DNA of 25,813 bases, from positions 1 through 25,813 of the IMG/VR virus record IMGVR_UViG_3300020042_004016; one strand, given 5' to 3'. The position numbers were made by a program, and so were the translations under genes. The notes under the pieces are model-generated. The model had not been told where the DNA came from and made no database searches. It was given only the letters and a program-made list of their open reading frames with translations. The DNA is from a virus (Duplodnaviria > Caudoviricetes). Within the stretch, counting starts at the first letter, position 1; each line of letters begins with the position of its first letter. Positions 20,092 through 23,128 of this stretch are shown here, piece after piece.

Positions 20092-20417
20092 TTGATATTT
20101 ATTTTATACGCTTCAAACTTCTGTTTCATTTGCTCGTTTTGTAACTCCAAATCACGAATATAACTTTGCGATTTATTAAAATATTCCTGAATTAAAAGTA
20201 AACGGTTTAATGTTTTCTCAAATTTCTGAATTGTTTTAACGTTAGGTAAATCTTCCTTTTGCTTCGTTATTAAATTACGTTCAACTTCTATAATAATATC
20301 GTTAAGGAAATAACCACTATGTTTATATTGCGTTTCCATTATCCAACTCATATCAAGTTTTCGCCACGCTTTTTCTATTTCGTGCGTTTCTTCTAAAATC
20401 TGTTTTACTGAAATCAT
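20088..20417 (-). CDS. Hypothetical coiled-coil protein
   Basis: 109 aa; ATGA overlap with the helicase gene. Confidence 0.7.
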   Translation of the reverse strand: MISVKQILEETHEIEKAWRKLDMSWIMETQYKHSGYFLNDIIIEVERNLITKQKEDLPNVKTIQKFEKTLNRLLLIQEYFNKSQSYIRDLELQNEQMKQKFEAYKINIK

Positions 20418-21841
20418 ATTCCTGCTTTTTTATTTAGTTCGTCCCAAATTTCAACTTTCTTTGTTTTTTCTACAATAAAGAATTTCAAAACTCCACTTGA
20501 CGTTCTTTCTTCAAATGGAATATTATAAAATTGCAAATAAGCTTTTAAATTAATTGTTAAACGGTTTTGAGTATATCCAAACTTTTTTAATTCTGGATAA
20601 GAAATCATAAATTTATCATAAATATCTTTAATTGAAACCCAATCGTTTTTGGTAATTGTTTCAACAAATGTAAATAATTCATTTCCAATTTTATCTTTTA
20701 GCTTTCTAATTCCTAAATTCTTAGGTGCTGATTTCACCAAACCACTTGTTAAATATTTCTTTACGCATTCAATCATATAATTATCAAATCGCGCCCATTC
20801 TTGAGCGTCCCAATCGTTAAATAATTCATTCTTAAAATAGTCTTTAGGTGTGTTATTTGCATTAAAGAAAGTACTTAGTTCAACTTCAAACTTTCGTGCT
20901 TCGTGTGAACCTGAATCGCCCTTTACAGTGTAATTTGTAGTAATTAAAATCTTTGGGCTTTCTTCAATTGGTAAATGAATTGCATCTTTACCTTTGTATT
21001 CAATTGTTAAACCCTCCGTAATTACGCTAAATAGTTTTTCAAATGGAAAGTTTCTTATAATATCGTCAAAAACTAAAACTTGGCAATCCGTTGAAACACT
21101 TTGATAAGGAAAAGATTTTCCAAAGCTAAACGTTTTTCCGTCAATAGATTGAACTTTCTTAAGGTTCTTTAAAGCATTCCAAAATAAACCTTTACCGCTC
21201 CTACCGTTTGGTTCATCTGAAATCATTTCATCGTTTAAAACTATTGCAAAGTTATCTGTTTTTGATTTATACGAGTGAATTAAGTAACCTATAATAGATT
21301 GAAACGTATTATATCTGTTTACATCTTCACCGCTAATTTTCCAAATAAATTCACGATACTGCGATTTATGGTGGTCGCATTCGGTATAATCACGTTTAAT
21401 AATTTGGTCTTTCCATATTGAAATACTTACATCGTTGTATTCAATTAATTCACGTTTATCTTTTGTAGTTTTTACAATACAATTTTTATAAAACAAATAG
21501 CTTGTATCTCGGTCGTCTTTGAATATTTCAATATCAATACTATTTATCATTGATAAAAATTCACGTTTAAAAAACTTTAAGTTACCAGACATAAGATTAA
21601 AAACCCTATCTTCAATATTATTATTTTCAATGTAATCTAAAACGAAATCCTTTACATCAACTTCGTTTATAATTTCTAAAAATATACCGTTCTTTTGAAT
21701 TATAACAAATGAACTTGAAGCATCTTTTGTTGGTTTATATTTATAAAAATTATTATCTGAAAGAAATTGTTTAAATAACTTATTGTTTAACGATGGAACT
21801 CCTTTTTCAGTAAAACTCCAAAACTCTATTTGTTTATTCAT
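20414..21841 (-). CDS. SF3/D5-like P-loop helicase (primase-helicase C-terminal part)
   Basis: Walker A NGRSGKG, Walker B VLVFDD, motif C ILITTN, and an ARKF arginine-finger-like segment. Confidence 0.8.
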   Translation of the reverse strand: MNKQIEFWSFTEKGVPSLNNKLFKQFLSDNNFYKYKPTKDASSSFVIIQKNGIFLEIINEVDVKDFVLDYIENNNIEDRVFNLMSGNLKFFKREFLSMINSIDIEIFKDDRDTSYLFYKNCIVKTTKDKRELIEYNDVSISIWKDQIIKRDYTECDHHKSQYREFIWKISGEDVNRYNTFQSIIGYLIHSYKSKTDNFAIVLNDEMISDEPNGRSGKGLFWNALKNLKKVQSIDGKTFSFGKSFPYQSVSTDCQVLVFDDIIRNFPFEKLFSVITEGLTIEYKGKDAIHLPIEESPKILITTNYTVKGDSGSHEARKFEVELSTFFNANNTPKDYFKNELFNDWDAQEWARFDNYMIECVKKYLTSGLVKSAPKNLGIRKLKDKIGNELFTFVETITKNDWVSIKDIYDKFMISYPELKKFGYTQNRLTINLKAYLQFYNIPFEERTSSGVLKFFIVEKTKKVEIWDELNKKAGI

Positions 21842-22098
21842 AAGTTAAGGTTTAATAGTTTTTCAATATTAACTCTTACTCCTATTGCATTACTTATATT
21901 TTCAATTAAAAATAAATTATTAGCCATTAATTTTGCAAATTCTAAATCGTTTAATTTAGTTTTAAAATGCTCATTAAATCTTTCTTTATATAAATAATGA
22001 ATATCTAAATATTTGTGTAAATCACTACAAAGTTGCTTTACTTCATTTGTAAACTCTTCGCCGTTTACTTCAATTTCTGTAATCTTAATTTTAATCAT
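21838..22098 (-). CDS. Hypothetical protein, first gene of the replication operon
   Basis: 86 aa; coupled (ATGA) to the helicase gene. Confidence 0.7.
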   Translation of the reverse strand: MIKIKITEIEVNGEEFTNEVKQLCSDLHKYLDIHYLYKERFNEHFKTKLNDLEFAKLMANNLFLIENISNAIGVRVNIEKLLNLNL

Positions 22099-22099
22099 T

Positions 22100-22224
22100 C
22101 CCGAACAATTTTAAAAGATAAAAGCCCATTAATCTTTCGTGGTTCGGGCACTACTTAATTAATGAGCTTTCAAGAATACTTTCTGTTACTCTTTGCTGAT
22201 AAACCGAACTATCAACATTAACGT
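22100..22224 (-). ncRNA. Structured 5' leader with two hairpins and complementary loops
   Basis: Hairpin 22216-22195 (loop region GTTCGG); hairpin 22170-22121 (apical loop CCCGAAC); GTTCGGG at 22106-22100, 1 nt before the ATG. Confidence 0.65.
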
Positions 22225-22227
22225 CCA

Positions 22228-22235
22228 CAAATATA
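22228..22235 (-). promoter_or_regulatory. Bacteroidota-type -7 promoter element
   Basis: TATATTTG directly upstream of the structured leader. Confidence 0.65.
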
Positions 22236-22256
22236 AAAACAATTTTTAATATAAAC

Positions 22257-22580
22257 ATAGGAAAAGTTTAAAAAAGTTTTAATAAAAAAGTTTTACTACT
22301 TAACTATTTGATATTTAAGAACTTACAAACCAATAGGAAAACTTCATTTTACAAACTTTTACTATCTAAAATATTGTTAATCAATTACTTAACTACAAAA
22401 AGTAAAAGTTTGCATCGAATTTTAAAAAAATATTTTGCCGAACATTCCGTTATATTATAAAGAGTTGGGTTTTCACTCAAAACTTTTACTTTTCGCTGTA
22501 ACTCATTGAACATCAATACTAAATATAGGAAAAGTTTGCTCTTAAAAACTTTTCTAAACTTTTATAGTTTTACTATTTTA
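22257..22580. repeat. Putative replication origin: three inverted-repeat modules plus AAAAGTTT-type iterons
   Basis: Arm pairs at 22289-97/22335-43, 22353-63/22401-11 and 22480-90/22527-37 with spacers of 37, 37 and 36 bp; direct repeat ATAGGAAAAGTTT at 22257 and 22525; non-coding and upstream of the helicase operon. Confidence 0.65.
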
Positions 22581-22606
22581 GTTGAATGTTGCGAAAATAA
22601 CGCATA

Positions 22607-22636
22607 AAAAAACCCCTACAACTATTTGCAGGGGTT
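22607..22636 (-). terminator. Intrinsic terminator of the recombination operon
   Basis: AACCCCTGCAA-ATAG-TTGTAGGGGTT followed by a U tract, ~20 nt after the stop of 22655..23128. Confidence 0.85.
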
Positions 22637-22654
22637 AAATTAATTCAAATCGTG

Positions 22655-23128
22655 TTACCTGAATTTAACCATCAAACTATCTTTATTATAGCTAATTGAT
22701 ACTTTCGGAACTTCAACGCCCTCGTTATCGAATAGCATTGTTTGTTTCTGCGCAACCTTTAAAAGTTCCTCGCGTGCTTTTAAATTAGCTTGTAAGTTAG
22801 TGTAAACCAAATCTTCTGAATAGTTTAATTTCTTTGCTCCGTCTTTACGTGTAAATTCTACGTTTCCGAAAGTAAAAGTTTTCGCCGTGTATTTTTCCGC
22901 TTCGTCACGTGCCATTTCATCAATCTTAACTTTTGCTTCCTTAAATAGTTTTTCAAGTTTGTTAAATGAAGCAAACGCATCTAAGGGGTTTACTACTCCA
23001 TTTTCAACGGCTTCAACTATTGCGTTAATACCTTGCGTTGTTTTCTCGATAACGTTCTTCGGCTGTGCGGTTTCGTAATCGTGCTGTTTTGCTTGTTGGT
23101 CAATATCGACCTGTTCTAAATGTTCCAT
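22655..23128 (-). CDS. Hypothetical protein of the recombination module
   Basis: 157 aa, helical; GVVNPLDA and GVEVPKVS motifs; downstream of erf. Confidence 0.75.
   Translation of the reverse strand: MEHLEQVDIDQQAKQHDYETAQPKNVIEKTTQGINAIVEAVENGVVNPLDAFASFNKLEKLFKEAKVKIDEMARDEAEKYTAKTFTFGNVEFTRKDGAKKLNYSEDLVYTNLQANLKAREELLKVAQKQTMLFDNEGVEVPKVSISYNKDSLMVKFR

Follow-up and report, generated by a model that had tools for sequence, protein, structure and literature searches.

A predicted family of kissing-loop leader RNAs ahead of replication genes in phages of presumed Bacteroidota hosts

The replication operon of the phage analysed here is preceded by a leader that, judged from comparison of sequences, belongs to a real and uncatalogued family of structured leaders, for which RNA–RNA control of replication operons is predicted. 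What its alleles appear to share is a conserved pairing between two loops, a hairpin of the terminator type and a link to replication genes, with an optional third partner beside the start codon. The window, i.e., the whole stretch of 25,813 nucleotides that was analysed, is the linear, 25.8-kb virus record IMGVR_UViG_3300020042_004016, with a completeness of ~81%. All its main genes (methylase, SSB, Erf, helicase-like, terminase, portal and capsid-type) lie on the − strand. Promoters of the TANNTTTG type, with a consensus taken from the available part of PMC6847099, point to a Bacteroidota host, and Bacteroidota titles on 10 of the 13 genome-contig matches support this probable assignment.

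The promoter, the two hairpins, the U-rich tract and the start-codon site that a preliminary description had placed on the − strand are all present. In order, the leader comprises a Bacteroidota −7 promoter, hairpin 1 carrying site 1, an A/U-rich linker, hairpin 2 with site 2 as its loop, a U-tract, the optional site 3 and the ATG. The −7 box, TANNTTTG (22228..22235), was recognised by the consensus and the 4–5 nt spacing given in the available part of PMC6847099, and predicts a transcription start near 22223, 5 nt past the box. Hairpin 1 (22195..22216; predicted fold −6.2 kcal/mol) holds site 1 (22209–22204) in its loop. The linker (22171..22194), with the family consensus AAGAAATTATT just 5′ of hairpin 2, is kept in alignments A2 and A3 (A2 is described below) and may serve as a cleavage site or as a groove-binding strand. 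Hairpin 2 (22121..22170; −15.5 kcal/mol) has a long, terminator-like stem, the apical loop of which is site 2 (22148–22142). Beneath this loop, and as an addition to the preliminary description, we find an internal loop of AGUA (22155–22152) and GAA (22138–22136) that matches the sarcin–ricin consensus; both AGUA–GAA and AGUA–AAA are given as sarcin–ricin motif sequences in the accessible text of PMC1865062. At the sequence level, AGUA opposite GAA or AAA and closed by helices occurs in the window and in 16 of the 46 clusters of the pooled family (see below). The U-rich tract (22113..22123) is a predicted point of leaky intrinsic termination, at which a strict terminator scan made no call. Site 3 (22100..22106), assigned as a second partner of loop 2 by its complementarity and its co-change with sites 1 and 2, stands one base before the ATG (22098–22096). 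Site 1 lies about 45 nt ahead of site 2, and site 2 lies 13–21 nt before the stem base; the distance from site 1 to the stem is 20–36 nt in 21 clusters and never below 20 nt. A mini-ORF of 10 codons also runs over hairpin 1 in the window (22186–22218, − strand) and is not conserved in other alleles.

As had been proposed, loop 2 is complementary both to site 1 and to the seven nucleotides beside the start codon, with predicted duplex energies of −9.1 and −12.5 kcal/mol, respectively. For the 137-nt leader, the predicted fold is better than that of 199 of 200 shuffled versions (z −2.9). When the leader was shuffled with its dinucleotides preserved, 3 of 10,000 versions showed a GC-rich 6-mer in direct, inverted and direct order (533 with any 6-mer allowed), and among 792 tiles of the window the direct/inverted/direct pattern occurred once, in the leader's own tile. 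Four further − strand copies of the seed lie in the window outside the leader. The one in the origin-like region has, by eye, no equivalent in other alleles.

Downstream of the leader, an 86-aa ORF of unassigned function (21838..22098, −) occupies a variable first-gene slot, and its stop overlaps the start of a 475-aa ORF (20414..21841, −), in agreement with the claim that the first ORF is coupled to the helicase. The 475-aa product is a P-loop helicase-like replication protein (phrog_28855, E 1.5e-94) with a weak primase match (phrog_6088, E 0.004); the motifs GRSGKG and FDD/WDD are invariant in its family, and our search found no solved structure for it. Most of the helicase homologues among the matches listed carry PF09250 (Prim-Pol), and others are fused to BT4734-N. 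The window protein is devoid of the N-terminal primase domain that most homologues have fused, and no separate primase gene was recognised within the window. For the 86-aa ORF there was no Pfam, PHROG or Atlas match. In relatives its slot holds NUMOD4-HNH or other genes, or no gene, and even near-identical phages differ there (an 85–102-aa ORF, NUMOD4-HNH, a small ATPase-like ORF, or nothing). At three loci (L077:3492-3779, L135:657-950 and L136:1111-1401) a first gene of 95–97 aa looks, on inspection by eye, similar to the N-terminus of the helicase encoded next. Upstream, the leader promoter is adjoined by an AT-rich region (22240..22600) with direct and inverted repeats, which is likely to be the replication origin; it is 80–94% identical in eight relatives, irrespective of the leader allele. 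Short A/T repeats and long inverted repeats are present in this region, which lies between a terminator (22636–22611) and the leader promoter.

Pairing was assessed in a helicase-anchored set of 166 helicase-bearing loci, with the window included and duplicates present. Candidate leaders, defined by criteria blind to loop pairing (a promoter outside an ORF, a hairpin of −11 kcal/mol or lower, a U-rich tail and an ATG), were found in 94 loci; among the 113 loci whose upstream sequence reached 1,100 nt or more, 83 had one. The 70 distinct leaders formed 28 hairpin clusters, each of which entered the pairing test through one unselected representative. Site 1 and loop 2 formed at least six Watson–Crick pairs in 21 of the 28 cognate combinations, as against 11.5% of 756 non-cognate pairs, and the mean cognate pairing energy over the 28 clusters was matched by none of 100,000 permutations. 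Among the seven clusters that fail are probable non-members, together with alleles whose helices are short or contain wobble pairs. In only 12 of the 28 clusters did the cognate loop outrank all other partners, and the alleles are therefore not fully orthogonal. Site 3, at −8.5 kcal/mol or lower, was found in 8 of the 28 clusters as compared to 6.3% of non-cognate combinations (24 of 100,000 permutations); of the three sites described beforehand, site 1 and loop 2 form the conserved core, and site 3 has to be regarded as optional. The sense strand was the better folder in 26 of the 28 clusters, and G–U outnumbered A–C combinations 44 to 7, a strand-specific signal; at the pairs flanking the kissing helix, where G–U and A–C numbered 10 and 15 of 92, no strand signal was seen.

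Alignment A2, a plain MAFFT alignment of 14 alignable, hand-picked leaders from one subfamily other than the window's, gave a similar picture. Pairing amounts to 92% in its kissing helix and to 94% in its hairpin 1 helix, and two-sided changes are seen at 6 of 8 and 5 of 5 pairs, respectively. On four of the five measures used, the whole structure surpasses every one of 500 shuffles (2 of 500 reach it on the fifth), and it surpasses all slid controls. Closer to the window, relative L091 has a G–U-compatible change in the hairpin 1 stem, and the scaffold of the window recurs in L165, L364 and L369 with other seeds (GTTCGG in the window; ATGCAG, GTTGCAG and GTCGCAG in the others), sites 1, 2 and 3 changing jointly.

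An independent scan, blind to seed and promoter, used a pattern made of the linker and the AGUA/GAA motif only and returned 70 viral stretches. Thirty of the 70 matches have a −7 box upstream, and represent 27 distinct sequences and 13 distinct loops. Site 1 and loop 2 matched over 6 bp or more in 30 of 30 promoter-bearing and 5 of 40 promoter-less stretches, and a site 3 match was present in 18 of 30 and 2 of 40, respectively. Conservation of the loop complementarity in relatives, which had been set beforehand as a refutation test, holds in both the helicase-anchored and the promoter-bearing sets, through complete changes of letters. For each apparent gene type one or two scan loci were picked by hand, and 14 of these 17 loci had a replication-category PHROG match; the replicase types behind the leader include Prim-Pol-helicases, primases, DnaB-like or T7-like primase/helicases, DnaD-like loaders and replication initiators. 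Since these proteins are unrelated, the leader seems to track the replication module and not one protein family.

Pooling of all loci gave 91 elements in 46 clusters with 39 seeds, a collection selected for pairing and with at least one likely false positive. Site 3 was assigned in 15 of the 46 clusters, in one of them spuriously, and lies 0–5 nt from the ATG in 14. U-runs were shorter where site 3 is present (2.7 vs. 5.0, p 0.0025, uncorrected for relatedness). By eye, a scan for promoter plus linker returned mostly chance matches (~16 of 114 distinct sequences being elements). The exact loop motif of the window was found in none of the records of viral_contigs, a set that may leave out records close to the window. 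Model R1 had no match on the stretches searched from the annotated phages Leef_1, BT-TP2, MW202828 and MT835542, which encode distant helicase homologues, so that a cultured model phage was not found among them; it matched in none of five MAGs and, in a shallow search with only 22 candidates scored each, in 1 of 151 genus-level bacterial genomes. In a lake metatranscriptome (X1, share 0.08, contigs only) one contig begins at 22205 and carries the same allele with five differences in 156 nt; it has a different first ORF and then runs into the helicase, in one study and as a contig that comes without read ends or strand. The X1 contigs gave no cover at 22219–22622.

The leader appears, from sequence comparison, to be swapped wholesale between close phages. 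Over the origin-like region, and likewise over the helicase gene, L001, L009, L092 and L093 share 92–94% identity with the window, as against only 36–48% over the leader; L091 has the leader allele of the window, at 98% identity. In the helicase tree, monophyly of the GGGCAT allele was rejected (p-AU 0.0023), and that of the AAGTGG allele was not (p-AU 0.057). Eight of the ten inner branches of that tree are without support, however, and since the tree itself is poorly resolved, the allele mosaicism could also arise without selection. Second leader copies with different seeds occur on the same contig in L060, L096, L170, L315, L359 and L070, and L110 carries a copy beside a leader of another type; seed types are so numerous that differing seeds in six of six copy pairs are expected by chance. 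The extra copies (L096:536-660, L170:6377-6475, L060:6716-6842, L070:7184-7299 and L110:5792-5910; also in L359, L315 and L309) mostly precede endonuclease- or methylase-like cargo rather than replicases, and L096 and L359 show tandems of leader, cargo, leader and replicase. The genes concerned are mostly NUMOD4-HNH-like, T5orf172-like or methylase-like; the copy in L309 lies in a bacterial genome assembly. The swap could plausibly come about if a cassette were first inserted and the stretch from one promoter to the other were then deleted.

The leader does not correspond to a named Rfam family, as had been surmised: at the gathering score, neither the window nor any of 20 loci with other alleles gave a match in Rfam 15. 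At E ≤ 10, the 11 weak matches over 21800–22700 included none on the leader, and at E ≤ 1 the 20 further loci gave five weak, unrelated matches; no C4/IsrK-type family was among either. Full-text searches, which covered few subscription papers, found no description of the leader; the supplements of PMC2864571 and PMC5737381, lying beyond the available parts of both papers and giving motif taxa and neighbours, could hold a related motif.

Two analogies had been drawn, and of these the P4-like layout is the closer. With the P4 arrangement of seqA, seqB (CI RNA) and seqC, and with IsrK and C4-like RNAs, as presented in the available parts of PMC4825925 and PMC3632133, the leader shares its position ahead of a replication operon. 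Further features shared with P4 are a central RNA segment complementary to one upstream and one downstream site, premature termination as the likely output, and short pairings that set specificity. The two-site layout is found in the window, in 8 of the 28 clusters and in 18 of the 30 promoter-bearing matches, other alleles having the upstream site only. The leader matches none of the P4, C4 and IsrK models of Rfam, and replication-operon control as in P4 is known here only from position, at the 14 of 17 loci scanned. Ribosomes of Bacteroidota ignore Shine–Dalgarno sequences. Unlike P4, the family has a Bacteroidota promoter, presumed hosts without Shine–Dalgarno use and relatives without a tyrosine integrase; its specificity would reside in a single loop of 6–10 nt on the terminator hairpin itself, the leader is only ~110–130 nt long, and the downstream site is optional and located at the start codon.

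In the rep control of IncI, IncB and IncK plasmids, a translated leader peptide is coupled to the initiator. With the IncIα repZ pseudoknot and Inc/RNAI the leader shares, in site 3 alleles only, a hairpin loop that pairs beside the start of a replication gene; in I-complex plasmids, changes of a few nucleotides in the loop define compatibility groups (PMC10724649, available part). The IncI analogy fails, however, on two features, a countertranscript promoter and a conserved leader peptide, neither of which the leader has; in addition, its conserved partner is the extra, upstream one (site 1), and its target hairpin is terminator-like. By analogy, the seqA/seqB/seqC layout is the better fit. 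An opposite-strand −7 box no more than 150 nt downstream, used as a promoter proxy, was seen in 1 of 21 clusters as compared to 26 of 187 background windows, and a countertranscript is not supported. Nor is a conserved leader peptide: of 46 clusters, 17 have an ATG in the 5′ part as against 16.8 in shuffles, and an upstream ORF of at least eight codons in 14 as against 9.8 (40 of 500 shuffles being as high), with no common frame or end. The replication initiators of pT181 and pIP501 are preceded by antisense-driven attenuators. Here, too, RNA–RNA recognition through a loop is predicted to decide on termination before a replication initiator, but the leader has no opposite-strand RNA promoter and no conserved alternative antiterminator helix. 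A helix of the latter kind, between the 5′ segment and either arm of the hairpin, was rejected since cognate and non-cognate combinations were alike (−4.4 vs. −4.7 and −5.1 vs. −5.2 kcal/mol).

By analogy to seqA/seqB/seqC, we propose that the leader acts as an RNA-only, allele-specific feedback brake on the replication genes, with pairing in cis as the ON state and pairing in trans as the OFF state, a reading in which belief and doubt weigh about equally. Upon fresh infection, site 1 of the nascent RNA would capture its own loop 2 as this emerges; the kiss would hinder zipping of the long terminator stem, leaving the start codon free. One speculative basis is that the kiss makes the 5′ arm part of a closed ring, and that a 3′ arm tethered to the polymerase would wind up more slowly as a result. 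Once terminated, and probably cut back within the A/U linker, leader RNA would accumulate with its loop 2 free, bind site 1 of new transcripts and lead to their termination; the loop 2 of accumulated terminated leader would be the simplest remover of site 1, giving negative feedback that is specific for the seed. Where site 3 exists, free loop 2 would also cover the start codon. In P4, CI RNA pairs with the upstream seqA and the downstream seqC, terminating transcription of the replication genes (PMC4825925, in the part available), and negative feedback logic for the P4 immunity region is also reported in the accessible part of PMC3632133. Both the sign of the switch (kiss as ON) and the action in trans are presumptive. 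With the spacing of the sites (~45 nt; 13–21 nt), site 1 would be open to a partner in trans first, and a kiss in cis would be possible before the lower stem closes. In Flavobacterium, structure at the start codon tunes initiation, and the initiation region must be A-rich and open (PMC6847099, available part). Pairing at site 3 would cover this region, and we infer that it represents OFF and its competitor, site 1, ON. Co-variation of loop 2 with a second site, next to the start codon, also indicates that this loop is more than a structural contact; and if termination and start-codon block are two outputs of one OFF state, the shorter U-runs of alleles with site 3 would be expected.

Repression would be limited to phages with the same seed, rivals of the same type included, which, as we propose, would give an advantage to novel seeds and to exchange of the cassette as a whole. 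A role in lysogenic immunity is unsupported, since a tyrosine integrase (PF00589) was found in none of five relative records, four of which are at least 90% complete. In its widest and more doubtful form, which we put forward tentatively, the leader would be a replication incompatibility system that operates across the phylum and without protein, in Bacteroidota phages that apparently do not integrate: a swappable cassette of 110–130 nt with dozens of seeds, in which the first-formed kiss topologically blocks zipping of the terminator on the polymerase and the released hairpin represses, seed by seed and in trans, the phage itself and its co-infecting kin. Counting against a brake in trans, a linker of at least 20 nt fits a stable intramolecular kiss and could self-silence the terminated RNA, about two thirds of the clusters have no site 3, and the extra copies stand before endonuclease or methylase genes rather than replicases.

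Because covariation cannot separate cis from trans pairing, and the linker permits an intramolecular kiss, two other functional readings retain a smaller probability. The leader could be a purely cis switch, in which sites 1 and 3 compete for loop 2 within one molecule, with ageing of the RNA, cleavage of the linker or the kinetics of transcription as the trigger, seeds drifting and recombination shuffling them. The covariation data fit this equally well, the linker never falls below 20 nt in the 21 clusters, and in the window site 3 is predicted to bind loop 2 more strongly than site 1 does. We nevertheless think it rather unlikely, as it supplies no trigger for the majority of alleles, which have no site 3, and makes no prediction of selection for many seeds; linker length and hairpin height are also uncorrelated (rho −0.34, p 0.13). 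Certain put-type antiterminators provide a precedent for an RNA fold read by a protein, and the kiss might likewise be a tertiary contact of a compact fold that is read by a protein such as RNA polymerase, the replicase or an antiterminator of the phage. As such a fold would have it, the geometry is fixed, and linker and AGUA/GAA internal loop are conserved while seeds vary; yet the replicases downstream are unrelated, which leaves no obvious ligand common to the phages, only 16 of 46 clusters have the AGUA motif, and a co-varying site 3 is left unexplained. This reading is in our estimate unlikely, and more so than the cis switch.

The cargo genes raise another possibility, that of a promoter–attenuator cassette by which selfish genes (NUMOD4-HNH, T5orf172, methylases) limit their own expression, left before replication genes after insertion. 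Among 24 first ORFs scanned there are seven NUMOD4-HNH, one T5orf172 and two methylases, second copies with other seeds precede such cargo, and L096 and L359 have the tandem layout noted above. Most elements, however, lie directly or one or two genes before a replicase, often without an endonuclease, and selfish cargo may account for the movement of alleles rather than for the function of the leader; we regard it as improbable as an explanation of the latter. Finally, that the repeats act as DNA, either as operator sites or as single-stranded hairpins of the adjoining origin for primase loading, seems very improbable. It is true that the leader adjoins the origin-like region and that primases and helicases are encoded downstream; but a promoter lies 5 nt upstream, a U-tract follows, site 3 is fixed to the start codon, the G–U pairs are strand-specific, the swap of leaders leaves origin and helicase unchanged, and no co-varying DNA-binding protein was seen.

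The feedback brake, if correct, bears on how replication is limited, or kin excluded, in the abundant small aquatic Bacteroidota phages, which is left unexplained by their annotated genes, with no evident repressor or integrase. The leader offers a concrete and testable RNA mechanism common to unrelated replicase families, and some 39 natural seeds on interchangeable scaffolds would readily supply orthogonal RNA regulators for use in Bacteroidota. In L034, L036 and L110 (L110:2440-2570), a compact leader of another type was seen about 95 nt upstream of the Prim-Pol start. Its G-rich 5′ end pairs with a C-rich stem ahead of a U-tract, and a word in its inner loop is complemented just before the ATG, with letters that differ between loci.
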